From positions 128,001 to 192,000 of the forward strand of contig CAVSGI010000010.1 of NCBI GenBank assembly GCA_963727445.1: a stretch of DNA of 64,000 bases, written 5' to 3'. This DNA is from an uncultured delta proteobacterium (GTDB lineage: Bacteria > Myxococcota_A > Polyangia > Polyangiales > B10-G4). The translations under genes and the position numbers were made by a program. Shown here in pieces: positions 24,220-40,943 of the stretch. Position 1 is the first letter of the stretch, and each line of letters starts with the position of its first letter. The notes below the pieces were generated by a model. That model saw nothing but the letters and a program-made list of their open reading frames with translations, made no database searches and was not told the DNA's origin.

Positions 24220-25389
24220 TCACTGAAGACGGCGCACGCGACTGCGCAGGCGGCGATCGTCTGGCTGCTTTTCCAAGCCCTGCTCGTAGGTGGCGAGCGC
24301 TTCTGCCGTCTGCTCGAACATCAGGAGCTGGTCACCCAGGAGCTCGTAGTTGCGCGGGTTGTCGGGCTCGGATTCGACCGCGCGGCGCGCCCAGGCCAGC
24401 GCGGAGTCGAGATCGCCCATCCGCTGTAAGGTGCGCGACAGATAGCGCATCGCGTCGTCGCTCTCGGGGTCCCACTCGAGCGAGCGGAGAAACTCGCGGT
24501 GGGCGACGACCAGCCGCCCGTTCATGTAGTGGCGCCGCGCCTCCTGCCGGATGTCCGCCGCGCGGTTGCGACGCACCCACGGATTTTCGAGCATCACGTC
24601 GGGGCTCGGCTCGGGAAGGGCGGCGAGGTCTTCGACGGGTGAGTCTTCGACGACGTCGGTTTCCGTCTCCGTTCCGGTCTCCGTCTCCGTCCCGGTCTCC
24701 GTCTCCGTCCCGGTCTCCGTCTCGGTCTCCGTCTCCGTCCCGGTCTCCGTCTCCGTCTCGGTCTCCGTCTCCGTCTCCGTCCCGGTCTCCGTCTCCGTCC
24801 CGGTCTCCGTCTCGGTCTCCGTCCTCGGCCTGCGCCCGGCGATCCGCGTCCCCTCCTCGGGGAGCGTCCAGAAGACCACCGCCACGATGGCCGCGGCGAG
24901 GGCGACGGCGACGACGGCGATCCAGCGGCCGACGCCGGTGTCGGGATCCTCGTCCGGCTCCTCGACGGGGCGCACGATCTTCTCCGTGGGCTCGCGGGTG
25001 CCTGGCAGGGCGCGGCCACGGCGCATGGCGACGCTCTCCGACTCCTCCTCGGCGTCGACGTCCACCTCGAAGACCGGCATGTCCGGCGGGTCGAGGGAGG
25101 AGACGTCGCTCTGGGGCGGGATGTCGACGTCCACCGCGACCTCGCCGTCCGTGTCCGGATCCGCCGAAGACGGGGGGCTCGAGCCGATCAGCCGCTTTTC
25201 CTCCGAGATGGGAGGGAGCTTCTTGCGCCGGCCGGCGCGGGGCGGGACCGGGGGCTCGCTGACTTTGATGTTCTTCGGCACCTTGACGACATCGGTGCTC
25301 CCCGCGGTGGGGGGCCGAAAGCTGGGCAGCCGCTTGGGGCGCTCCCGCTTTTCGTCTTCGCCTTCGGCCACGACCCGGAATTTTGCCAC
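24220..25389 (-). CDS. Bitopic membrane protein: disordered N-terminus, TM, (ET)n stalk, C-terminal TPR domain
   Basis: Likely GTG start at 25389. One TM (WIAVVAVALAAAIVAVVFW) and TPR helices at the C-terminus. Confidence 0.7.
   Translation of the reverse strand: MAKFRVVAEGEDEKRERPKRLPSFRPPTAGSTDVVKVPKNIKVSEPPVPPRAGRRKKLPPISEEKRLIGSSPPSSADPDTDGEVAVDVDIPPQSDVSSLDPPDMPVFEVDVDAEEESESVAMRRGRALPGTREPTEKIVRPVEEPDEDPDTGVGRWIAVVAVALAAAIVAVVFWTLPEEGTRIAGRRPRTETETETGTETETGTETETETETETETGTETETETETGTETETGTETETGTETETDVVEDSPVEDLAALPEPSPDVMLENPWVRRNRAADIRQEARRHYMNGRLVVAHREFLRSLEWDPESDDAMRYLSRTLQRMGDLDSALAWARRAVESEPDNPRNYELLGDQLLMFEQTAEALATYEQGLEKQPDDRRLRSRVRRLQ
24660..24822. repeat. Imperfect (GTCTCC)n hexamer tandem repeat encoding (ET)n
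   Basis: Directly visible tandem hexamers; boundaries approximate. Confidence 0.9.
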
Positions 25390-25433
25390 AGTCCCCACCC
25401 GCGGGACGAATTGCCGGTTTGGTATCGTTGTGT

Positions 25434-27338
25434 ATGGGCGTGGTGGTGGGGTTCCTCTCGTTTCTGCTGGTTTGCGCCTGCGGAGGCACCTCCGATGGGT
25501 CGGGGGAGGCTCCCCCGGAGACACCTCCGCCCGCCCGGGCTGCGGCCGACCCGCTTCCGAGGAGCGAAGCGCCTCCCGCCGCCGAGCCCCCGAGCGAGCC
25601 TCCCGCCCATCCGCTCGCCCCGCTCCTTTTGACCGAGCCGGTCCTCCTGATGGAGCTCGAAGCGCACGGGCTCGCGCTTCACGACATCCTCGGCGTCACG
25701 GGGCCGGACACCCACGCTCTGCATCGCCAGAGCTCCCACTACCGCTCCTTCGTCGATCTCGTCGGTCTCGATGATTCGGTGGCGCGCTGGCGCGACCCCG
25801 CGGCGCGCGTGGGCCTCTCTGCCAGTCACCGCCTCTTCAACCCCGGCTGGCTCGATCGCGAGAGCACGCGCTTCGAGCTGATCGCCGTGGTCAACCGGTT
25901 GGACCGGATCCACGCGACGCCCGAGGGCTGCGGGGAGGTGCGGTTGATCTACCGACTGGCCTACGGCACCGGCCACGCGGGATCGCGTCTCCCCATGACC
26001 CTCAACGCGGTCTTCGATCAGGGGGACGACTGTCCGGCGGTGGCCCGCTTCTGGCTCGGACTCGCGAACGCCTCCGACCTCACCCAGGCCCTGCGCACCG
26101 CGCCCAGTCCCCTCGCGGGTGATCCGCGACCGAAGCGACTCGAGGTGAACTTCCAGTCCGGGCGCTGGCCCTCGGGCGTGCGTCCATCTCTGGGCGGGCA
26201 TGCCGAGTACGTCCTGCGCGTCTTCCACTTCGAAGGGGATCACGTCGTGGTCGGGACGCTGGAGAACACGCCGACGCAGCGCCTCGGTGGCGGCAAGCGC
26301 AACGAGCTCCGCGAATGGCTCGCCGGACACCTCGAGGAGGTCGACGACGGGACGCTCCTCGTCCCCGAGCGCTTCCTCGCGGAGCGCAGCGTCTCGGTTC
26401 ATCCGCGCGGGCTCGCGCGCTACGCCAACCGACCGTGGTCACAGATCCTGCCGCACCCCGAGCGGCCGCTGCCGCACGTCTCCGACGGAACGCTCACGCA
26501 GATCGCGTCCCAGGTCGGCTTGATGCGCCGGCTCGACCAGATGTCGTGCAAGGGCTGTCATGCCTCACGGGCGCTCGCCGGCTTTCACGTGCTCGGAGAG
26601 GACCGCCCCGGTACCAGCCCTCACAACGCGATCCAGGTGGGGATCAGCCCGCATCTGTTGAACGACCTTCCCTTCCGCGCGGCGAATCTATCGGCCATCG
26701 CCGAGGGGCACCCGCGCCCGCGTCGCCCCTTCTCCGATCGGGGCGCCTCCACCGGACGCGTCGGCGATGCGTGTGGTCTCGGCGACCCGACCTTTGCCGA
26801 TTGGACCTGCGAGGAGGGCAACGTCTGCAAGGATCGCCACGGCGACGCGGTCGGGGAGTGTGCCCCCGCTGCCGGGCCGGGCCCGGGGGATGGAACCGAG
26901 CTCGGCGAGGTCACCCGCGACCGCCGCGGGCTTCGGGATCGCGTCCGCAACCTCCGCACCGAAGAGTGTCTGCCCATCGACGGCGAGACGGCGCGCGCGG
27001 CCCCGAGCGGCAGCGGCTTCCCGAACGGCATCTGCGTCGCGCCCTGCGAGCGCTTCGGCCTGGTCGACGGCGACCGCATCTGCGGCCCGGTGCCCAACGG
27101 GCAAGGCACGCAGTTCGACGGGTTCACGGCCTGCCTGGCCCAGCATCAGCAGAGCTTCGACGTCTGCCTGGGAGACGACGCGCATCCGACATGGCTCGCG
27201 CGGTGCGATTTCGACGAGCCCTGCCGGGACGACTACCTCTGCGTCGACGTCCCAAACGCGCCCGAAGGGCAGGGCGCGTGCATGCCGCCCTACTTCCTCT
27301 TTCAGGTGCGGGTCGACGGGCACCGCGTCCCACAGTGA
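25434..27338 (+). CDS. Hypothetical lipoprotein with one CxxCH and a Cys-rich C-terminal region
   Basis: Signal ending VCAC, SCKGCH, many Cys in the last third. Confidence 0.7.
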   Translation: MGVVVGFLSFLLVCACGGTSDGSGEAPPETPPPARAAADPLPRSEAPPAAEPPSEPPAHPLAPLLLTEPVLLMELEAHGLALHDILGVTGPDTHALHRQSSHYRSFVDLVGLDDSVARWRDPAARVGLSASHRLFNPGWLDRESTRFELIAVVNRLDRIHATPEGCGEVRLIYRLAYGTGHAGSRLPMTLNAVFDQGDDCPAVARFWLGLANASDLTQALRTAPSPLAGDPRPKRLEVNFQSGRWPSGVRPSLGGHAEYVLRVFHFEGDHVVVGTLENTPTQRLGGGKRNELREWLAGHLEEVDDGTLLVPERFLAERSVSVHPRGLARYANRPWSQILPHPERPLPHVSDGTLTQIASQVGLMRRLDQMSCKGCHASRALAGFHVLGEDRPGTSPHNAIQVGISPHLLNDLPFRAANLSAIAEGHPRPRRPFSDRGASTGRVGDACGLGDPTFADWTCEEGNVCKDRHGDAVGECAPAAGPGPGDGTELGEVTRDRRGLRDRVRNLRTEECLPIDGETARAAPSGSGFPNGICVAPCERFGLVDGDRICGPVPNGQGTQFDGFTACLAQHQQSFDVCLGDDAHPTWLARCDFDEPCRDDYLCVDVPNAPEGQGACMPPYFLFQVRVDGHRVPQ

Positions 27339-27345
27339 GCGGCGC

Positions 27346-28141
27346 TCACTCCGGATCGGCGAAGTCGGCGGGGCGCTTCATGAACACCGCCTGCGCCGCT
27401 TCCATCTGATTGGGGCTGCCGAGCAGCGGGCGCTGGAGCTCGGTCTCGAGCGCGAAGCTCTCCTCCGGTCCCATCGTCCACGCTTCGTTCAAGAGGCGCT
27501 TGTCAGCGCGGATGGCGTGAGGGGAAGACGCGGCGATCGCCCGCGCCGATTCGAGGGCCGTCGCGATGGGATCGTCGACGGCCCGGGTCACCACGCCGAG
27601 GGCGACGCCCTCCTCGCCGGAGAAGCGGCGCGCGGTGAAGGTCAGCTCCTTGGCGACGTCGAGGCGCACGCGACGCAGGAGCGTCTGGGTGATCCCCATG
27701 TCCGGGACGAGGCCGTAGCGCGCCTCCATCACCGAGAGCTGCGCGTCCTTCGTCGGCGTAGACGATGTCGGCGCCGAGGGCGATCTGCAGCCCGCCGCCG
27801 AAGGCGAAGCCGTGCACGGCGGCGATGACCGGAACCGGAACCTCCTGCCAGACCCAGGCGACCTTCTGAGCGAGGTTCGCCACCTGACCCTCCGCGCGGT
27901 TCAGGAGCTCGGGTGCGGACTGGGGATTGGACATGAAGCTCATCCAGTCGAGACCAGCGCAGAACCCCTTCCCCTCGCCGCTCAGGACCACGGCGCGCAG
28001 GCGCTTGTCGTCGGCGAGCGCTTCGCCGGTGGCCGCGATCTCGAGAAACATCGCGTGGTCGAGGCCGTTGCGCTTGTCCGGCCGGTTCAGCTTCACGTGC
28101 GCGACCTTTCCGTCGCGCTCCACGATCACCCGTTCACCCAT
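27346..28141 (-). CDS. Enoyl-CoA hydratase/isomerase (crotonase) family protein, split by a frameshift at about 27750
   Basis: N-part: [37 protein letters not shown]-part (ORF 27346..27732): [21 protein letters not shown]. Confidence 0.88.
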
Positions 28142-28187
28142 GGCGGCTTGATACCACCGAATCGGCGCTCGCGGGGGCCCCGTCGGA

Positions 28188-30393
<2,206 letters not shown>

Positions 30394-30430
30394 CGAGGAG
30401 CATCGTAGCGCACTTGGGGCGCCTCTCGTC

Positions 30431-31423
30431 CTAGCCTTTCCAAGGTACGGAGCGGGGGGTCCGAAGGAGCCGATCGACCGCTCCACGGGCGGTTTCGAAG
30501 CGCTGCCCCCAGCTTCCCTCGACCACCACGTAGGGCCTTCCGTGCTCTTGTAGCGTCGCTTTGCAGCGGTCGAAGAAGGAGCGTCGCTCCTCGGGCAGAT
30601 AGCGGACGACGTCGTCCACCCAGGGCACGTCCACGTTGCACAGCAGGGTCAGATCGTAACGATGCTCACGGGCGGCGGCGCGAATCCATGCGGGACATCG
30701 GCCGTAGAGCACGTCACTCCAGATCGTGGTGCTGAGCAGATCGGTATCGCAGATCATCAGCGGGCCCGTCGAACGGGCGAGGGTGTCCTCCATCGCGCGC
30801 TGGCCGCGCGCGATGTGCTCGATGTCGTCTTCGGCGAGCGCGCCCTCGTGCGCCTCGATCAGCGTGCGCGCATACTCCGGGACGAGCGTCGCGTCGAAGT
30901 GTTCAGCCAGGCGTCGCGCGAGGGTCGACTTGCCGGTGGACTCGGGACCGAAGACGCACACCCGCCGGGCGAAGTGCGCCCTCACCGGAGGTGGAAGGTG
31001 CGCCCAGGCAGCGAAGGGGTCATCGCGGACGGCGGTGCCGCTGATGGGACGGATCGAGCGTTCCGGGTCGACCGGGACGAAACGCGCGCCGAGGATCTCC
31101 GCGAGCTTGGGACCGTAGCTCTCGGAAGCGAAGACCAGGTCCACCGGCGCTGGCAGGATGCGGGTGAGGCTCTCTCTCCACAGCTCCCAGAAGTGCGGGT
31201 GCTCCTCGGGCGATTGCGGGTTTTCGTCCCTCAGGTGCAGCACCTCGGCGCGGGGCGCGAGCTCCCGCATCCAGGCGTGTCGGAGAGCGCTGTCGATGGG
31301 CTCGCCGCGAACGTGCTCCACCACGACGAACACCTCGTCTGCGTATCGTGTCGCGACGTCGATGAGGTAGAGGTGTCCCGAGTGAGGCGGCAGGAACTTC
31401 CCCAGGACCAGGCCGCGGGTCAC
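30431..31423 (-). CDS. NadR-like bifunctional nucleotidyltransferase / P-loop kinase without an N-terminal HTH
   Basis: GTG 31423 overlaps the NRPS-like stop. [10 protein letters not shown] (HxGH), 'FASESYG', 'ISGTAVR', GPESTGKST, 'VPEYAR', 'CDTD', 'VPWVDD..R'. Confidence 0.88.
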
Positions 31424-34234
31424 GCCGCACCTCCGATCGCCGCGCGGACGTAGCGCCGGAGGAGCGCGCGGCTCGGCACGGGGCATCGAAGCGAGTCGCC
31501 CATCCGTGCGCGGGTTCTTCGGGTATCGAAGCGCGCGCGGGTGGCTTCGAAGAGGTCGAGGCCGCGATGTCGTGAGAAGGTCTCCTCGCCCAGGGAGCGT
31601 CCGAGGGCGAGGCAGGCGGCGCCCACGTCGGCATCGTCCGTCGCCTCGAGGACTTCGGCGACGCGCACGCGGAAGGCCGCCTGCGAAACCTCCGCCAGGC
31701 GAATGCCTTCGTCCTCCATGGCCCGTCGCAGAAGCGCGAAGCGCGTGGCCTCCGCGGCTGCGACGTGAAAGACGCCATCCATTTCTCGCTCGTGGGCGCG
31801 GGCGATCAGGCGGGCCGTGACCTCGGCCGCGTAGTCCACGGGGGTCACGTCGAAAGCGAGGGCCGGGTCTCTTTGCGCGGGCACGACGCCGAGAGCGGCG
31901 AGCCCGCGGATGGTGCGCGGGAGCCAGGCGCCGCGCGGGCCGCGGCCGGAGGCGGATTCGCCGGTCAGCAGCCCGAAGCGGAGGACCTGCGTCGATGACA
32001 GGTGTTCGGCGGCCGCGTGCACGAGCAGCTCCGCCGCCACCTTGGTCTCCGCGTAGCCACCATGAACGCGGGTGCTTTCGCGCGGCATCCGATCTTCGAA
32101 GTGCTCCCCTTCGGCGTCGTCGGTGCTCACGAAGACCGAAAGCGTCGAGGCGTAGGTCACGCGTTTGGGCCGTCCCTCTGCGGCGAGGGCGAGGATGGAC
32201 GCCGTCCCCTCCACGTTCGCCGGATGGAGGACCTCCCACGGTGCGGTCACGCTGACCCGGGCCGCGCCGTGCACCACGTGGTCGACCTCGGCGGCGAGCT
32301 GGGCCCATCGAGATGGGTCGAGTCCGAGCTTTTCCCGGGTGAGATCGGCCGCGATCACCTCGATGCGATCGGCGGGCGCCCCGAGCGCCTCGAGGCTGCG
32401 GCGCACCCGCGCGTCCGCCGGCTCTTCGCCGTCCCGCGCCAGGCAGATCAGACGCGCGGGGCACAGAGCGAGGAGACGCGCGACGATCCGCGCGCCGAGA
32501 AAGCCCGTCGCTCCGGTGATCAAGATCGCACGGGGCGCGCCGTCACGGGGCGCGCCGCTCGGCGCGGGCAGGGCGCGCGCGAGCGCGGCCGCGCGCGCGC
32601 CGAGCGCGGCCACCGTCGGGGCCTCCTCGGACGTGCGCGCTTCCATCCGAGTCGCCAGCGCCGCCAGGCTGCGCGCGCCGAGGAGCGCGCCCGCGTCGAG
32701 CGGCAAGCCCATCGCCTCGGCCCGCGCCACCACCTCGAGGGCGTCGAGGGAGGTGCCGCCGAGATCCGAAAAGCGCGCGCCTGCGTCGAGGGCAGGGCGC
32801 CCGAGGACGCGCGCACAGATCCCGGTCAGCGCCACGAGGAGCGGTGAGGCCGGCGGCGCCCCCGCGCGCAGGAGGGCGCGCCGGTCGAGCTTGTGATGCT
32901 CCGTCTCGGGCAGGCGACCGCGCCGCGTGATGCGCGAAGGGACCATGTAGCTCGGAAGCGTCTCGGCCACCCACGCGCGGAGCTCGGCGTCGCGCGCTTC
33001 ACGTGCGAGCTCGACCCAGGCTTCGACGTCGGCCTCGAGCGTCACCGCCGCGCGCCGGACGGCGGGATGCGCTTCGAGGCGACGCTCGATCTCTTCGGGC
33101 GCGACGAGGTTGCCCCGAACCTTTCGCTGGCGATCGATGCGCCCCTCGAAGAGCCAGGTCCCATCGGCATCCCTGCGCACGCGATCGCCCGTTCGGAACC
33201 AGCGCTCTCCCGCGGCCACCACGAAGCGCGTTTTCGTGAGCGCCGGTGCGCCGCGATATCCGCGCGCCACCCCTGGCCCGCCGATGAGGAGCTCGCCGTC
33301 CTCGATGCGGTAGCGCGCGCCTCCGATGGGCGCGCCGATCGACGGTCGCGCCCACGCCTCGTCGCAGATCGCGACGCTGGTGCAGATCGTCGCCTCGGTG
33401 GGACCGTAGACGCTCACGAGGTGCACGCGCGAAGCGAAGCGACGCACCGCGGCCGGGTCCGCCACCTCGCCGCCGATCACGATCGTGCGAAGTGTCGCGG
33501 GCAATGGCGCGCAATCGAGATGGGGCAGGAGCGCGGGCGGCAGATCGACGTGGGTGATCTCGCGTCCGCGGAGCGTCGCGACCAGGGCGCGGGGATCGGC
33601 GAGGCGGAGCGCCGGTGCGACGACGAGGGTCGCTCCGGCGAGGAGCGCCGTGAAGACGTCGGACAAGGACGCATCGAAGCCAGGCGAGAGCACCCACAGG
33701 CAGCGACTGCTGGCGTCGATGCGGAAGGCGGCGATTCGATCGTCCAGGACCGGGAGCACGCCGTCGTGCGGGACCTCGACGCCCTTCGGCTCGCCGCTGG
33801 TGCCCGAGGTGAAGACGAGCCAGGCGAGGGGCGTCCCGGCCTCGGGCGCGCCGTCGCCCTCGGTCCCTGCCTCGAAAGCGATGCGCGGAAAGACCTCGGC
33901 CGAGCTCCACGTGAGGATTCTGCGCGGCGCCGCTTCGGGCGAGGTAATCCTCGGCGCGCGCGGCTGGGAGGGAAGGGTCGATGGGCACCGGAACGAAGCC
34001 ACCGATCCAGGCGCCGATCACCGCGGTGGCCCACTCCGCCGAGCGAGGGAGGTGAAGCGCGACGGTCTGGCCCTCCTTCATCCCGCGCGCGCGAAGCGCC
34101 GAGGCCAGCGCGTCGGCGGCGGCGAGGAGCGCCTCGTAACTCACCACGTCATGGCCGCTGTGAACGGCGATCGCGTCGCCCTGGAGGGCCGCGACCTCGC
34201 GCAAGCGCTGGACGACGGGCGGGGCCGGTCTCAC
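31420..34234 (-). CDS. Stand-alone NRPS-like adenylation-thiolation-reductase (A-T-R) enzyme, frameshift at about 33918
   Basis: A motifs FTSGTSGEPKG, FDAS, YGPTE, GELLIGGPGVARGY, FRTGD, GRIDRQ.KVRG, HKLDR. T motif DLGGTSL. R motifs TGATGFLG, NVEGT, GYAETK. N-terminus comes from ORF 32999..34234; GATTC to GATC joins the frames. Confidence 0.9.
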
Positions 34235-35077
34235 CCGTCCTCCTCCGGCATCACGTAGTCATCGAGGGCCGACCCCGTCGAGCGGTTGTCGACGTTGGGC
34301 GCACCGCGGCGAGCGCGCACGTCGTCGAGGTGCACGACGCGGAAGTCCAGGCTGAAGCGCGTCGTGTCCTCGGTCTGCGGGCGCGTGGCGTGAAAATGCG
34401 CGCCGCTGAAGAGGAGGTTCTCCGCGCGCTTGCAGGAAAAGCCCACCGCCGCGCCCGGGTCGACCTCGCCTTTGACGCCGGGGTAGCGGGCGGTGAGCCC
34501 GTGGTCGCGATTCTGCCAGCCGATTCTTGAGATCCCATCCCTCCTTCACCCACCGGTCGTAGTCGAAGATCTCGGAGTCGTTCGGCACCGCCTCCTCGAA
34601 GCGCTCCGGGTAGAAGAGGAAGGTCTGCTCCTCCGGAAGGTCGTCCAGGGGGATCCACCAGGTAACGATGGACTGCGAGTGGCCGTACCAGGTGTCGCGG
34701 TGTGGGTAGTACACGGCCTTGGCCCGCGGATTGTGGTGGCCCCGATGCGTCACGACCCGGAGGCGCAAGGGATCGAAGGCGGAGCGATCGGGCGCGTACC
34801 CGTAGGCGGCGATCACCGCGCGGGCGAGGCGGTGGAAGCGCTCTTCGAGGAAGAGGATCCGGCGGATTCGCCCCACGTGCTCGAAGAGGGTCACGTCGTC
34901 GAAGCGCTCGTGGGCGCGGCGGGGCGCGTCGCCCAGATGCTCCCGCACCACCTCGTCCACCGCGTCGGCGAGGGCGACGGAGGCGTCGGTCGGCGCGAGC
35001 TGGAAGATCTCCCCGCGGTAGAGCGCCCCGCGCAGCGCGTCGGCGTCAGCCGGGGCCTGTTTGGAGAAGGTGCTCAT
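34231..35077 (-). CDS. 2OG/Fe(II)-dependent oxygenase-like (PhyH-type) protein, frameshift at about 34509-34526
   Basis: ATG 35077 overlaps the methyltransferase stop. HRD (HxD), 'TWWIPL', distal His in 'FSGAHFHAT', and 'RFSLDFR' in ORF 34231..34446. Confidence 0.7.
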
Positions 35078-35850
35078 GCGCGTACCTTCGGCTTCTCCGC
35101 GATCACGATGCAGCGAGGGCTCTCGAGCGTGAGCGCTTCGCCGTTCACGCTGCCGACGAAGCGAAGGCGACCGAAACCCACGCTCTCGAGGAGACGGCCG
35201 AGCTCGGGCGGCGTGTAGGCACGCACCTGGCTCTCGTGCTCGACCTCGCGCCCGTCCGCGAGCGCGTAGCGCCACACCTTGTGCATCACCCCAGCCGTCG
35301 CGTCGTAGCGGCTCCTGCGGGTCAGCCGAATCGGACCGAGGGCGGTATCGCGCTCGGTGACCACCTCGGGCAGGAAGCGGTGAAGGACGCCCGGAACGTT
35401 CATGGTGTCGAGGGCGAAGCGGCCTCCCGGAACGAGCGCCTCGAAGGCCCGCGCCAGCATGCGGGTGTTGTCCTCGTCGGCGCTGGCGTAGCCGAAGCTC
35501 GTCCACCAGTTGATCGCCCCATGGACCGGGCGCTCGGGGAGGAAGGTGAAAGCGTCGCCCGCCACGAGGCGTACCGAGAGCCCCTCGTCATCCGCGACGC
35601 GCTGCCCCCGGGCCGCGTATCCCTCGCCCAGATCCACGCCCACCACCTCGAAGCCCGCGCGCCCGAGCGGCACGGCGAGACTCCCGATCCCGCAGCATTG
35701 ATCGAAGATCCGATCCCCGGGCGAGACGTCGAGGGCGCCCGCGACGAAGCGCAGGGTCGCCTCCACCTCTGCGTCGTCCTTTCGTACCAGCAGCACCTCC
35801 GCCAACAGATCGTCGTAGAGGTCGTGCCACCAATCCTTCGCGTCGTTCAT
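35074..35850 (-). CDS. Class I SAM-dependent methyltransferase
   Basis: Motif I 'IFDQCCGIG', 'VVGVDL', 'WWTSFGY', 'ALVPGGRFALD'. Confidence 0.9.
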   Translation of the reverse strand: MNDAKDWWHDLYDDLLAEVLLVRKDDAEVEATLRFVAGALDVSPGDRIFDQCCGIGSLAVPLGRAGFEVVGVDLGEGYAARGQRVADDEGLSVRLVAGDAFTFLPERPVHGAINWWTSFGYASADEDNTRMLARAFEALVPGGRFALDTMNVPGVLHRFLPEVVTERDTALGPIRLTRRSRYDATAGVMHKVWRYALADGREVEHESQVRAYTPPELGRLLESVGFGRLRFVGSVNGEALTLESPRCIVIAEKPKVRA

Positions 35851-35858
35851 CGATGATC

Positions 35859-37789
35859 CTAAAGGGCAAAACGCGTGGCGAGGAGGCACGCGGTCAAGAG
35901 CAGAAAGAGAACGGGCTCGGCGCCTTTGCGTTCGCGCTCCGGTGCTCGGTCCAGCGCGTCGAGGAAGGCCGCGACCTTCTCTCGCTCGACGAAGGGGACG
36001 TCTTCGATGGCGGCGCTTCGGAGCACGTCGTGCACGAGGGCGCGACCTCGAGGTGTGGCGTGAAGCGTGAGCGGAGGTGCGAGGAAGGGGTGCTTTTCGC
36101 GCAGGCGCGTCTCTTCGGGGACCAGCCCGCGCGCGACCTCGCGCAGGGCGTGCTTCTCCACGCCGTTTCGGATCTTGGCGCCGATCGGCAGGTCCAGGGC
36201 GGCGCGGGCCAGGTGGTGATCGAGAAAGGGCGGCCGGCCTTCGATCGACGAGGCCATCTCGGTGGCGTCGCCGAGGGTCCTGAGGATGTAGCCGGCGAGG
36301 GCGAGCCGGGTCCAGAGGTAGGCGCTCTGGGCGACGGGGTGGCGGCCTTCGAGCTGACCCGCGACGTCGAGGGAACCGAGCAGCGCCCCGAGGCGCGCGC
36401 GCGCGATCTCTTCGGAGCCGCCCGCCGGGGACAAGAGCGATCGGAGCCGACGGCCGAAGTCGACCTTGGCCCGCAGGAAGGCGGGCACGGCGCCGAGGCG
36501 AGCGGCGAAGGGAGCGAGGAGCGGATCGGCGCCGCCGGCCGCCCCGGCGTGCGGGAGCATCACCCCGCGCGACGCCCCGTGACCCGCCCGCAGGCGCTGG
36601 CGAACGGCGACGCGCGCGGCTTCGGGGAGCGTCGCTTCGAGGTCGGCGAGCAGATGCGAATAGCCGTAGAAGAGCTCGTCCGCGCCTTCCCCGGTGAGCA
36701 CCACCGAAAAGCCCGCCTCCCGGATGGCGCGTGACAGAAGCAGCTTGGCCGGGAGCTGGCCGTTGATGGCCAGCCCCTCGCCGTGCGCGACGGCGTCGGG
36801 GAGGGCGTCTACCAGATCGTCCTGCGTCACCTCCACCGGGTGGTGGATCGCGCCGATGTGGTCGGCCGCGCGGAGGGCGGCGTCGCGTTCGTCGTAGGGC
36901 GGGTGCGCGAAGGCGACGCCGAAGGTGTGGATGGGCGCGTCCAGATGGCGGGCGGCGATGGCGCTCACCAGGCTCGAGTCGAGGCCGCCGCTCAGGGCGA
37001 AGGCCACGGGGACATCGGCGCGAAGGCGCACGCGCACCGCCTGGGGAGGGCGTCGACCGCGGCGCGGAGCGCGCCCGGGTCGTGCGCCTCGCCGCGCTCC
37101 TCCTCCGCGCGGAGCGGGAGGTCGAGATCCCAGTAGCGCTCGAGGCGCGGCGAGGCGCCGCGCTCCGCGATCAGCAGGTGGCCAGCCGGAACCTGCCGGA
37201 GGCCCGCGAAGAACGTGCAATCGGCGGGGAGGTATTGATGCGTACACGCCGAAAGGAACGCCTCGCTGTCCCACGCCGCGGGCACGCCCATGGCGAAGAG
37301 GGCCTTGGCCTCCGACGCGAGGAAGAGGCCGCGCGCGCTCTCTGCGTAGACGAGCGGCTTGATGCCGAAGCGATCCCGACCCGCGACCAGCCGCTGCCTC
37401 GGTTCGTCGAAGAGTACGAAAGCGAGCTCGCCTCGCAGCGCGTTCACGAAGTCGAGGCCGCGCTCCTCGTACAGATGCACCAGGACCTCGCTGTCGGATC
37501 CGGTGGCGAAGCGATGGCCCTGCTTCTCGAGCGCGCGGCGGAGGGCGGCGTAGCCGTAGATCTCGCCGTTGATTACGGCGTGTACCTTTCCGTCCTCGCT
37601 CGCGAGAGGCTGGCGTCCGTCGTCGGGGGCGATGATGGCGAGCCGGGTGTGACCGAGCCACAGCGCGCCGTCGTGCGTCGTCCACTCACCCTCACCGTCC
37701 GGGCCGCGGTGCGCGAGCGCTTGCAGCGTGTGGCGGCGTTCCTCGATGGACAGCGGCGCGCGGGTCCACGCTGCCGCCACCCCGCACAT
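35859..37789 (-). CDS. Asparagine synthase (glutamine-hydrolysing, AsnB-like) amidotransferase, frameshift at about 37045
   Basis: N-terminal MCG, HRGPD, GHTRLAII, NGEIY, RDRFGIKPL; then ALSGGLDSS, TGEGADE and RPPFLD in the second frame. Confidence 0.9.
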
Positions 37790-38727
37790 CAGGCGACCCC
37801 TTCAGGCCGGAGGAAGATCTTCTTCGACTCGTCCACTCGGGCGGCCGCGAAGGCTGCTTCGTAGTCGGCGAGCGGGTAGGAGGGGCCGACGAAATCGTCG
37901 AGGCCGAGGGAACCGCTCGCGATCATCGTTAGGGCGGCCGCCATGTCTCCGTAGGCGACGGCGCGGATGGTGATCTCCCGGGCCACCGCGCGCCGGAAGT
38001 CGAAGGGCACCTTGTCGGCGGGCCGGCTCTTGAGAACCAGCACGCCACCGGGGCGGAGCGCGTCGAGCGCGGCGTCGATGGCGTGCTCCGTCGGCGCCGT
38101 CTCGATCACGAAATCGACAGAGCAGGAGGCGAGGACATCCCGCTCTGGGTCGCGGATGGGCGCGTCGATGCCACGGGAGGCCAGAACTCGCCGCGTGAGC
38201 TCGGCGATCCGACCCGCGCCGAGGATCACACCCTTCGCGCCCTCCTTCAGCTCCGCGTCGAGCACCGCGAGGGAGGCGGCGACGGGCTCGGCATAGGCGC
38301 CGTGGGCGAAGGAGACGGAGTCGGGGAGCCGGTAGACTGCGCGCTGGGGCACGACCAGCCTGTCGGCAAAGGCGCCCTGGCGGTCGATGCCCAGCATCAC
38401 GCTCCGCTCGCATCGCCAGGGCGGCGCGCCTCGACCGCAGCTGGGACATCGGGCGCAGCCGACGATCGGAAAGACAGTCACGCGCTCGCCCGGCCGAAAG
38501 CGCGTCACCTTCGCGCCGACCCCCGTCACCCGCCCGGCGAGCTCGTGACCGAGCACGCGCCCCGAGGCGGTACGGATGCGGCCGGCGGCGGCGTGGAGAT
38601 CCGTCCGGCAGATGCCGGCCAAGACGACGGCGATCTCCACGTCGCCCGCCTCCGTCATCGACACGAAGGGCGCAAGGCGAAGCGCCCCATCCCCCGTCGT
38701 CATCAGCCCCCTTCTGCTAGGTGTCAT
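37789..38727 (-). CDS. Zinc-dependent medium-chain alcohol dehydrogenase family protein
   Basis: GICRTD, GHE, structural Zn CARCPSC...C, degenerate GAGRIA. Stop overlaps the asnB-like start (TGATG). Alternative start 38703. Confidence 0.85.
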   Translation of the reverse strand: MTPSRRGLMTTGDGALRLAPFVSMTEAGDVEIAVVLAGICRTDLHAAAGRIRTASGRVLGHELAGRVTGVGAKVTRFRPGERVTVFPIVGCARCPSCGRGAPPWRCERSVMLGIDRQGAFADRLVVPQRAVYRLPDSVSFAHGAYAEPVAASLAVLDAELKEGAKGVILGAGRIAELTRRVLASRGIDAPIRDPERDVLASCSVDFVIETAPTEHAIDAALDALRPGGVLVLKSRPADKVPFDFRRAVAREITIRAVAYGDMAAALTMIASGSLGLDDFVGPSYPLADYEAAFAAARVDESKKIFLRPEGVA

Positions 38728-38736
38728 TTGTACACT

Positions 38737-38765
38737 AAGCTGGGCCGGGATGCCGGCGCTGTCAA
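38737..38765 (-). promoter_or_regulatory. Candidate sigma70 promoter for the six-gene operon
   Basis: Minus strand TTGACA (38765-38760), N17, CAGCTT (38742-38737). Perfect -35, weak -10. Confidence 0.4.
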
Positions 38766-38784
38766 CCCCCACTGTCTCACCCCC

Positions 38785-39435
38785 TCAGACTTCCAGGTCG
38801 AGACCCACGGGGCAGGACAGTCCCGTTCCCCCGAGCCCGCAATAGCCGTTCGGATTCTTCGCGAGGTACTGCTGGTGGTAGGCCTCGGCGAAGTAGAAGG
38901 GACCGGCGTCCACGATCTCGGTGGTGATCTCGCCGTAGCCCGCGTTCGTGAGGACTTCCTGATAGGCCTTCTTCGAGGCCTCGGCCGCCTTGCGTTGCGC
39001 CTCGTCGTGGACGTAGATGCCGGAGCGGTACTGGGTCCCCCGGTCGTTGCCCTGTCGCATGCCCTGGGTGGGATCGTGATTCTCCCAGAAGACCGCGAGG
39101 AGCTCTTCGAAGCTGATGACCTTCGGGTCGTAGACCACGCGCACCACCTCGTTGTGGCCGGTCATGCCGGAGCACACCTCTTCGTAGGTGGGGTTCTTGG
39201 TGTGGCCCGCGCTGTAGCCCGCGGCGGTGCTGATCACGCCTTCGGTCTGCCAGAACTTCCGCTCGGCACCCCAGAAGCACCCGAGACCGAAGACGGCCAC
39301 CTCGGCCCCTTCGGGGACGTCGACGAGCGAGGCGCCGTTCACGAAGTGCTCGCTCGGCACGGGCATCGCGTCGTCACGGCCGGGGAGGGCCTCGCCGGCG
39401 CTGGGCATCTTCATCTTCTTATCGAGGGAGAACAT
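38785..39435 (-). CDS. msrA: Peptide-methionine (S)-S-oxide reductase
   Basis: [57 protein letters not shown]. Confidence 0.97.
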
Positions 39436-39473
39436 GTCGGGTCCTTTTGAGCTGTGGCGAAGGCTCGGTTCCG

Positions 39474-40943
39474 TCAAGCGCTCGCTTCACCGAAGGCCTT
39501 CCGCGTCAGCTCTGCCGCGGCCTCGGGAGTGGCGAAGCTGACGCCCACCGCGGCGACGACGCCCGCGAGGAGCGCCCAGAATACCGGCAGGAAACCCGCG
39601 AGCGGAAGGACCCCCATGACGCCCAGGCCGTAGACCAGATTCCCCACCAGGATCGAGGCCGCCGCGCCCCCAGCGGTGAAGCGGCGCCAGCGGACGCCGA
39701 GAAAGAGGGTGGGGACCAGGGTGACGTATCCGGAGAACGCGATCCGCGCGATGCCGAAGACGGTGTCTCCCCAGGCCAGGGACAGGAGGTAGACGGTGGC
39801 GGCGACCACTAGACCGAAGATCCGCCCCACGCGCACGTCGCGGCCGGCGACGTCCGTGGGCCAGAGCTGGTCGAGGACGTCGCGGGTGAGCATCGAGCCG
39901 AGGGTGAGGATCTGCGCGTCGAGGGTCGACATCACGGCCGCGAGCACCGCCAAGAAACCGAAGGCCGCGAGCCAGGGTGGCAGGTGTCCGGTGATCATCT
40001 TCGCGAAGATGCTGTCGACGCTCGGCCCTTCGAGACCGGGATAGGCCGCCGCGCCCCAGAAGCCGATCATCACCACCGGCAGCCAGAGGAGGATCAGCGC
40101 GATGGGATAGATGCGCGACGCGCCCACCAGCGCGCGTTCGCTCTTGCCCGCCATGAGCCGCACCAGCATGTGCGGGAAGGCGATCACCGTCAGCGTGATC
40201 GCCAGGCCCCAGCTGGTCCACGCGCGCGGCTCGAAGAGCCCCACGCGATCGATGCGGACCAGGGAGGGGTCCTGCTCCAGCACCGCCTGACTCGCTGCAT
40301 CGAAGCCACCGAGGTCCGCGGGGATCAGGAAGAAAGCGATGAGAACGAAGAGCAGGAAGATCAGTCCCTGTACGACGTTGGTCCATGCGGTCGCGCGCAT
40401 TCCACCGAGGGTGGTGTAGACGAGCGCGACCACGGTGACCGCGGCGGCGCCGGCCCAGTCCGGGATCGCGCCCGCGCTCACGCCGGACAGGGTGATGGTC
40501 GCGCCTTTCACGGCGGTGACCATGTAGGGGAGCGTGTAGAGCGTGAAGAAGGCGAAGAGCAGATAGCCCACCTTCGGCGAGCCGAAGCGCCGGGCGTAGA
40601 GCTCGGCGGGCGTGAGCGCGCCGATGCGCGCCGCCATGCGCCGCGCGGGCGAGCCGATCGCCCAGAAGGTGAGCGGGATGCCGAGGGCGATGATCGGGGC
40701 ATTGACGCCGAAGGTCCCGATGCCGTCGCCGTAGGCCTTGGCCGGGATGCCCACCAGCACGAAGGCGGTGGCGTTGGTGCCGAAGAGCGCCATGAAGAGC
40801 ACCAACGTCCCGAGGCCGCGCCCCGCGAGGAAGTACTCCTCGGGTGAGGCCGCCGACTTGCGGGTGGCGGCCGCGCCGACGCCGATCACGACGACCACGT
40901 AGATCGCGCTCACCACCAAGAGCGGCGTCAGGACCTCATTCAT
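39474..40943 (-). CDS. Sodium:solute symporter (SSS) family transporter
   Basis: About 13 TMs, [28 protein letters not shown]. Confidence 0.92.

Follow-up and report, generated by a model that had tools for sequence, protein, structure and literature searches.

A six-gene cassette shared by several bacterial phyla, apparently in the NrtR regulon, may make an NAD-like dinucleotide

What does a bacterium make with an operon that joins a carrier-protein reductase to an enzyme of nicotinamide adenine dinucleotide (NAD) salvage? The question is raised by a 64,000-nucleotide stretch of contig CAVSGI010000010.1 (assembly GCA_963727445.1, an uncultured delta proteobacterium; the whole stretch is called the window below), on whose minus strand, from 38727 down to 30431, lie six genes: those of a zinc-dependent medium-chain dehydrogenase/reductase (MDR), an AsnB-like amidotransferase, a methyltransferase, an oxygenase, an adenylation-thiolation-reduction (A-T-R) enzyme and a NadR-like protein. 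The six-gene pathway is undescribed and common to several phyla. To judge from a putative operator at its head, the cassette appears to be under the same repressor, NrtR, as the NAD-recycling genes of its host. The reading that we prefer, at a probability of about 0.5, is that its product is an NAD-like dinucleotide built on an amino-alcohol and made in the cell upon NAD breakdown.

An earlier note, made from the letters of the window, had named the six families and proposed that they form one new pathway. Pfam and NCBIfam scans of the block's proteins bear out its domain calls (Table 1), the Pfam scan finds no condensation, thioesterase, phosphopantetheinyl transferase (PPTase) or PnuC domain within the block, and the five junctions are as it read them (TGATG at 37787-37791, an 8-nt gap at 35851-35858, ATGA at 35074-35077, and GTGA at 34231-34234 and 31420-31423). 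Its statement that no characterised cluster has this composition also holds for the literature searched, in which most subscription journals are not covered.

The six genes are conserved together elsewhere. A GTDB scan with a profile of the oxygenase found 126 relatives, the best 80 of which were kept as loci; by their record titles these 80 span Myxococcota, Verrucomicrobiota, Planctomycetota, Nocardia, Legionella, Acetobacteraceae and a cyanobacterium. The full set lies within the locus in 42 of the 80 (41 of 78 without two unpublished genomes) and in 25 of the 32 loci that have 10 kb of flank on both sides. Counts of gene co-occurrence, pocket residues, NadA, matrix sites and split cassettes include one or both of the unpublished genomes, G072 and G119; those for NAMPT, NrtR presence, NadR motifs, operator enrichment and PnuC exclude them, and no conclusion hinges on them. 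Gene order shuffles as three pairs: MDR with AsnB, methyltransferase with oxygenase, A-T-R with NadR. The MDR is fused to the methyltransferase in one protein (P0223), and the tight coupling of A-T-R and NadR is evident in their adjacency in most loci and in the single open frame that they share in L050 and L054. Where a locus is incomplete, the missing genes were located elsewhere in G040, G070, G079, G110, G111 and G113, for all six genes, and likewise in G112 and G117, where NadR lay outside this check. The full set was not recovered from G046, G114, G118, G122, G123 and G119; so far as is shown, these assemblies are either small or fragmented. In fourteen related genomes that lack the cassette, no methyltransferase, MDR or AsnB of the cassette type scores as high as cassette members do. 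Among 61 related genomes the NadR-like protein was matched in 10; five of seven such regions carry the cassette in unchanged order (the methyltransferase is absent from one, and another has a 5-kb insert), and the other two are a short contig with R and NadR and a plain NadR adjoining PnuC. Because the genes co-occur, and because split copies mostly keep their missing members elsewhere in the genome, the six, on this comparative evidence, act as one pathway.

No seventh conserved gene was found: no transporter, transferase or PPTase recurs, non-core clusters reach at most 14 loci, and an aspartokinase gene, considered as a further member, is confined to L020, L032 and L096. Nor was a phage form found, there being no relative of the oxygenase in IMG/VR or in a phage collection and, at 52 viral NadR loci, no further gene of the cassette. 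On plasmids the oxygenase has distant relatives (13 records, 26-33% identity); five such plasmid regions have no other cassette gene nearby, and in two Aminobacter plasmids (L162, L166) the distant relatives close cydAB operons.

The regulatory setting is what points the cassette toward NAD. A candidate promoter had been placed at 38737-38765, and this claim is unsupported, a sigma-70 scan having found no site in 30200-39700; in its place stands an operator-like palindrome. ADP-ribose suppresses DNA binding by the repressor NrtR, whose sites are mostly palindromes of 21 bp around a GT-N7-AC core and whose known targets are mostly genes of NAD synthesis or salvage (PMC2330246). An operator matrix was assembled from nine sites (six other loci adjoining nrtR or draG), hand-picked after the window site was known and leaving out two nrtR-adjacent loci with a different palindrome, L011 and L090. 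On a flat background, the three top sites of the host genome are C21:454967, C10:404681 and the window site, the last being third of five sites of at least 13 bits in 9.47 Mb and the best in the window. The site at C10:404681 precedes pncB-nadE-nrtR-pncA, with an NrtR_WHD gene at C10:408596. The one at C21:454967, the strongest NrtR-type site of the genome, precedes SPFH/Band 7 and NAD-kinase-like genes (C21:453029-454987; L149:4030-5988), which we take to be probably nrtX-nrtY of NrtR regulons, a pair given in PMC2330246 merely as genes of unknown function.

Among loci that did not contribute to the matrix, 11 of 43 windows 5' of the MDR gene score at least 12 bits, against 5 of 505 windows upstream of flanking genes, all five being the same MDR sites viewed from the neighbour; 200 trials with column-shuffled matrices gave a mean of 0.6 and a maximum of 6. 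Of the genomes with NrtR, 11 of 30 have such a site ahead of the first gene; of those without, none of 8. Upstream windows of inner genes hold next to none (AsnB 0/49, oxygenase 0/74, NadR 0/62, methyltransferase 1/68). Since ADP-ribose releases NrtR, the pathway would answer NAD cleavage.

Three further observations concern operators. A weaker palindrome of like form (9.8 bits) lies just before a 317-amino-acid gene without an NCBIfam match (C14:437305-438299; L153:3306-4300), which is possibly a further member of the regulon. The nrtR-led cassette operons left out of the matrix carry another palindrome, ATGC...GCAT-like, over the promoter (approximately L011:4290-4345 and L090:1290-1330), which suggests a second NrtR specificity. 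The bulk of the hits obtained with a GC-weighted background, taken up below, falls in two AT-rich tracts (approximately C8:2000-29000 and C25:1-13000, with 0.33 GC at C25:283), either islands or contamination.

NAD and ADP-ribose genes also occur around the cassette in 16 of the 80 loci (nrtR, pncA, pncB, draG, NADAR, cinA, NAMPT, nadM-Nudix), and in L061 the series nrtR-draG-pncB-pncA stands directly ahead of the whole cassette. The pathway is an addition to NAD synthesis and no substitute for it, because nadA, nadC, nadD, nadE, pncA and pncB are all present in the host, where the NadA match is weak (E 8e-34) yet above the cut-off. A role as replacement for de novo synthesis is ruled out more generally by NadA, which 51 of 56 cassette genomes have, as do 23 of 24 others.

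The NadR-like enzyme makes the second link to NAD. Its scores fall below the curated cut-offs (TIGR01526, 283 bits against 341; NF005988, 150 against 201), and both catalytic domains are equipped: the KF and HxxH motifs of the nicotinamide mononucleotide (NMN) adenylyltransferase domain (K9, H14, H17) and the P-loop, EY and DTD motifs of the ribosylnicotinamide kinase domain (G159, E161, G164, K165, E183, D226) stand in 60 of 60 cassette rows. Profile searches match 9X6F (E 1e-58) and 8X7F (E 6e-62); by hand mapping on the former, which we assume to be Bas30_86 with a 6-residue offset, K10, F11, F110, S112, E230 and D275 are kept and S37, G89 and D115 differ. In a quick tree of 111 NadR rows, drawn to see whether the cassette enzymes form a clade of their own, the cassette label needs 3 changes. 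NadR normally partners the importer PnuC (PMC2330246; PMC13464706), and a PnuC-like gene is present in 43 of 52 viral NadR loci. In the cassette loci there is none (0 of 80), none was found in the host genome, which is 85.6% complete, and one of the 64 other cassette genomes has it above the cut-off. Because PnuC was thus found in only 1 of 65, NadR probably gets its substrate from the other five enzymes, within the cell; the motifs would have this substrate a riboside or a close mimic of one. Viral NadR genes (L097-L148) often stand with PnuC plus NAMPT, NadM-Nudix or pncA-like genes, so some phages combine two routes of NAD reconstitution.

What the A-T-R enzyme would feed into such a pathway is constrained by its pocket. 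The A3 and A10 motifs, the carrier serine and the reductase Tyr and Lys are present, and there is neither a condensation nor a thioesterase domain. The pocket code, DASDVGVICK (family form DASD[VI]GV[VI]CK), resembles codes for Lys, Orn, Arg and Gln; its positions were assigned by motif and follow PheA numbering. Two of 75 rows do not cover the pocket; D235, D278, G301 and C331 are kept in all 73 that do, and S239 in 72. D278 suggests a cationic or polar side chain, and D235 points to an alpha-amino acid substrate (10.1101/559534). Choline or betaine chemistry as in fungal ATRR was considered and is excluded by D235 in 73 of 73 rows, by the lack of an aromatic code residue and by the single R domain, where ATRR has an aromatic cage and two R domains. 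The best family match, far under its cut-off at E 9e-100, is MxcG of myxochelin synthesis, an enzyme charged with lysine that sets free an aldehyde or alcohol (PMC8400222). A gene of the PPTase family lies elsewhere on the same contig (C10:752572).

Of the tailoring enzymes, the AsnB-like protein keeps its N-terminal Cys and SGGxDS in 35 intact orthologues, and has both the N-terminal Cys glutaminase and the PP-loop synthetase, a class assignment that does not define the substrate; its best Protein Data Bank (PDB) match is 7YLZ (E 4e-91), and the intact orthologue of L068 scores 442 on TIGR01536 (cut-off 267). A sister gene in the host (C6:68527-72146; L152:6528-10147) lies in a row with genes for glycine/sarcosine and sarcosine/dimethylglycine N-methyltransferases and for a solute symporter, a cluster whose possible product is an amidated betaine-type solute. 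One Acetobacteraceae-like lineage of five genomes lacks MDR and AsnB: all five have NAMPT, against 3 of 60 other cassette genomes, and in four of them NAMPT and nadM-Nudix are in line with separate A and R genes, no carrier domain between, and NadR. This is consistent with an AsnB that restores the amide that PncA removes. In the carrier-less variant (L069, L073, L079, L083, L087, L091) A and R are separate genes, the pocket code is unchanged, and NadR evolves fast, on a long branch.

The S-adenosylmethionine (SAM)-binding enzyme matches 9RI2 best in the PDB, over its full length (E 4e-34); this is NmbA, an N-methyltransferase of an amine, bacillithiol (PMC12719100). Its motif I reads DQCCG, with D, Q and G invariant in 40 sequences. 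The oxygenase is of the PhyH type, an Fe/2-oxoglutarate enzyme with a double-stranded beta-helix fold, and its HxD...H iron site and 2-oxoglutarate-binding Arg are intact (H126, D128, H229 and R240 invariant in 53 homologues); a model of the homologue P0001 superposes on PtlH with Z 15.8, the root-mean-square deviation (rmsd) being 3.6 over 227 aligned residues. A PDB sequence search with the oxygenase profile gave no match, and the ESM Atlas gave generic names only.

The dehydrogenase had been thought to interconvert aldehyde and alcohol with NAD(H); its MDR identity stands, the model (mean confidence, pLDDT, 95.8) lying at Z 35.0 from threonine dehydrogenase 2DQ4 (rmsd 2.5 over 305 residues) with the catalytic zinc ligands C40, H61, E62 and E147 retained, but the step is doubtful as then written, for about 25 Rossmann residues and often the second Gly of the nucleotide motif have been lost. 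From the first Gly of that motif to the end of strand D, 147 of 150 representatives span 31-48 residues, against 53-83 in 7 other MDRs and 66-67, by hand count, in 2DQ4 and 4ILK, and in the model neither a strand nor a helix is complete between helix B and strand D. The second Gly of GxGxxG is kept in 69 of 150 and the third position is Gly in 2 of 150, so that neither the complete Rossmann domain nor the glycine motif of a canonical NAD-dependent MDR is there. R173 and R235 are invariant in all 150. Sequence and model together suggest that cofactor binding is altered, perhaps for a mononucleotide. A host paralogue is also partly shortened, at 53 residues, so the trait may have arisen in a wider subfamily.

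How might these parts work together? Cleavage of NAD would yield the ADP-ribose that releases NrtR, and the operon would be expressed alongside pncB-nadE-nrtR-pncA as a cytoplasmic branch of the NAD regulon, an in-house source of NadR substrate in place of the importer PnuC. The A domain would activate a single alpha-amino acid whose side chain is long and probably cationic, on a carrier primed by a PPTase encoded elsewhere, and the reductase would release it as aldehyde or alcohol. AsnB would convert a carboxylate, most simply that of a nicotinate group, to an amide; building or tailoring of the molecule would fall to the SAM enzyme, the oxygenase and the truncated dehydrogenase; and NadR would phosphorylate its primary alcohol and then adenylylate it, so that in the product the amino-alcohol would replace the nicotinamide-side ribose of NAD. 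The whole chain, with the order of its steps and its product, is conjectural.

A more specific form can be drawn, which we regard as distinctly unlikely because the SAM enzyme looks like a methyltransferase. In it that enzyme would put an aminocarboxypropyl group on N1 of nicotinate or nicotinamide, giving a pyridinium amino acid of the kind called nicotianine; AsnB would amidate, A-T-R would reduce to the amino alcohol, and NadR would phosphorylate and adenylylate. The four carbons from N1 to the phosphate oxygen equal the length of the ribose path C1'-O4'-C4'-C5', and the acyclic analogue would resist NADases, having no glycosidic bond to cut. The shortened-fold dehydrogenase would use the analogue nucleotide or its monophosphate, and the compound would serve as back-up cofactor or NADase inhibitor, made when ADP-ribose tells that toxins or defence enzymes are destroying NAD. 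Such a molecule would explain the cationic pocket, the amide step, the chain length and the induction signal. Aminocarboxypropyl transferases can resemble ordinary class I methyltransferases; among the 18 PDB matches of the SAM enzyme at E 1e-8, no entry is named as one. A search of the literature on nicotianine and aminocarboxypropyl transfer, and on natural carba-NAD or acyclic analogues, found nothing bearing on this idea.

Returning to the NAD-like dinucleotide in its general form, a number of observations weigh against it. None of the block's enzymes is known to couple a pyridine with an amino acid, and it is an amine that the SAM enzyme's nearest solved relative methylates. In the NadR pocket no change is peculiar to the cassette, its FW motif being found also in 30 of 44 viral rows, so that true nicotinamide riboside and an analogue would fit it equally. 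The NAMPT lineage, carrier-less and a single group of close relatives, counts as one event. As to the operator, a GC-weighted background puts the window site at rank 7 of 44 (the four extra sites above it are AT-rich and belong to contigs C8 and C25); at 12 bits, 32 of 43 loci are without a site; NrtR is present in 47 of 60 cassette genomes (none seen in 13), yet also in 7 of 14 controls; the bare pattern is unenriched in the genome, with 12 matches to the 11 of its reversed control, and is matched by 10 of 100 shuffles of the window; and kin are not independent, L045 and L054 sharing one site.

The strongest competitor, which we think improbable though to be taken seriously, is that the cassette ends in NAD itself: by a new route of salvage or repair, an endogenous modified pyridine or a damaged nucleotide would become nicotinamide riboside or NMN, to be finished by an ordinary NadR. 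Such a route would suit the known NrtR targets, most of which serve NAD synthesis or salvage (PMC2330246), an unremarkable NadR that resembles PnuC-linked enzymes closely, and the presence of NAMPT and NadM-Nudix where the dehydrogenase and AsnB are absent. Yet in a host with nadA, nadC, nadD, nadE, pncA and pncB, and in cassette genomes that mostly keep nadA, there is no gap for it to fill, and an amino-acid-type A domain with an invariant pocket fits no drawable route to nicotinamide riboside.

Somewhat less probable still is a non-nucleotide small molecule, an N-methylated, amidated and oxygenated amino aldehyde or alcohol such as an NADase inhibitor or stress solute, made by five enzymes; NadR would then be merely a co-regulated supplier of NAD or a self-protection enzyme. 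Each of the five tailoring families is common in clusters for small molecules, and the resemblances of A-T-R to MxcG and of the SAM enzyme to an amine N-methyltransferase, like the sister AsnB beside glycine-betaine methyltransferase genes, lean the same way. What tells against it is that NadR stays beside A-T-R through most rearrangements and can share its frame, that a plain NadR without PnuC would have no imported substrate, and that no exporter recurs with the cassette.

That the block is a decaying relic or a chance neighbourhood is very improbable, for the three frame changes in its 8.3 kb have their like in 5 of 48 other conserved genes of the assembly and in a split nadC, the oxygenase holds its identity on both sides of its break, and the fully flanked loci already remove chance. 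The changes lie near 37043 (AsnB), 34527 (oxygenase) and 33915-33975 (A domain); the 48 other genes have 10 changes in 52 kb, the alanyl-tRNA synthetase gene alaS alone three. Because alaS and other conserved genes show them too, the frameshifts of the block are, by comparison of sequences, probably assembly errors; the oxygenase is 84% identical to P0001 ahead of its break and 88% beyond it. Frame also changes in an enoyl-CoA hydratase gene (window 27346-28141) and at the end of a hybrid histidine kinase gene (28126-30486), which is consistent with assembly errors.

Table 1. Genes of the cassette and its candidate operator, in window coordinates
Feature	Position	Strand	Domain matches
Zn-dependent medium-chain dehydrogenase, shortened Rossmann domain	37789..38727 (alternative start 38703)	-	ADH_N + ADH_zinc_N
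AsnB-like glutamine amidotransferase, frame change near 37043	35859..37789	-	GATase_7 + Asn_synthase
Class I SAM-binding methyltransferase-fold enzyme	35074..35850	-	Methyltransf_25
PhyH-type Fe/2-oxoglutarate oxygenase, frame change ~34527	34231..35077	-	PhyH weak, E 2e-4
Stand-alone A-T-R reductase, frame change ~33915-33975	31420..34234	-	AMP-binding + PP-binding + NAD_binding_4
NadR-like NMN adenylyltransferase/ribosylnicotinamide kinase, without helix-turn-helix (HTH) domain	30431..31423	-	CTP_transf_like + AAA_28
Candidate NrtR operator, 21-bp GT-N7-AC palindrome, overlaps upstream ATG of dehydrogenase gene	38718..38738		

The block is flanked upstream by msrA and a sodium:solute symporter gene and downstream by the hybrid histidine kinase gene, none of which co-travels with it in related loci. 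The host genome, 9.47 Mb in 27 contigs, has 69% GC. PADLOC 2.0 anti-phage models run against 8 proteins gave a generic methyltransferase (mad2) as sole match, and no system. Elsewhere in the window, 25383-27338 on the plus strand encodes a Cys-rich, probably secreted protein of 651 amino acids without a Pfam or NCBIfam match.

Of the three products once proposed, the NAD-like dinucleotide has gained from the operator and from the NAD-gene neighbours, and a nucleotide-activated head group and a secreted toxin have been weakened, because no transferase or transporter recurs with the cassette. Bacterial NAD metabolism is held to be well mapped, and destruction of NAD is central to phage defence and to interbacterial toxins. 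Here is a six-enzyme pathway that is apparently within the NAD regulon and yet employs a carrier-protein reductase of natural-product chemistry. The operator makes the question of its product directly testable, and whatever the outcome it would be new, be it one more route to NAD, a natural analogue of NAD or a metabolite of NAD stress. The shortened-fold dehydrogenase, for its part, may be a natural enzyme for a non-standard nicotinamide cofactor.

Each component has known kin from which it departs. The dehydrogenase shares its fold (Z 35) and catalytic zinc ligands with MDRs of the threonine/sorbitol dehydrogenase type, in which the stretch from nucleotide motif to strand D is longer. The SAM enzyme has NmbA (9RI2) as its best solved relative, but the latter's motif I is DIAxG in place of DQCCG, and no bacillithiol gene was found among the neighbours scanned. 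MxcG, Lys2, fungal ATRR and the carboxylic acid reductases resemble the A-T-R enzyme in having A, T and R domains with the usual motifs; the cassette enzyme differs from stand-alone and terminal A-T-R reductases in being without a condensation domain, in having its own pocket code and in being partnered with NadR, and it keeps the D235 that fungal ATRR is without (10.1101/559534). With the NrtR regulons of Rodionov et al. 2008 (PMC2330246) the host has in common the 21-bp GT-N7-AC palindrome at the operon start and an nrtR-pncB-nadE-pncA group behind a like site; the regulon table, in the part of that paper drawn on here, has no member resembling a nonribosomal peptide synthetase, AsnB, methyltransferase or oxygenase. 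Another near system is the PnuC-NadR salvage of nicotinamide riboside (salvage III; phage NARP3, Bas30_86/87), which likewise uses an HTH-less NadR with both catalytic domains; in the cassette the place of the PnuC partner is taken by five biosynthetic enzymes.

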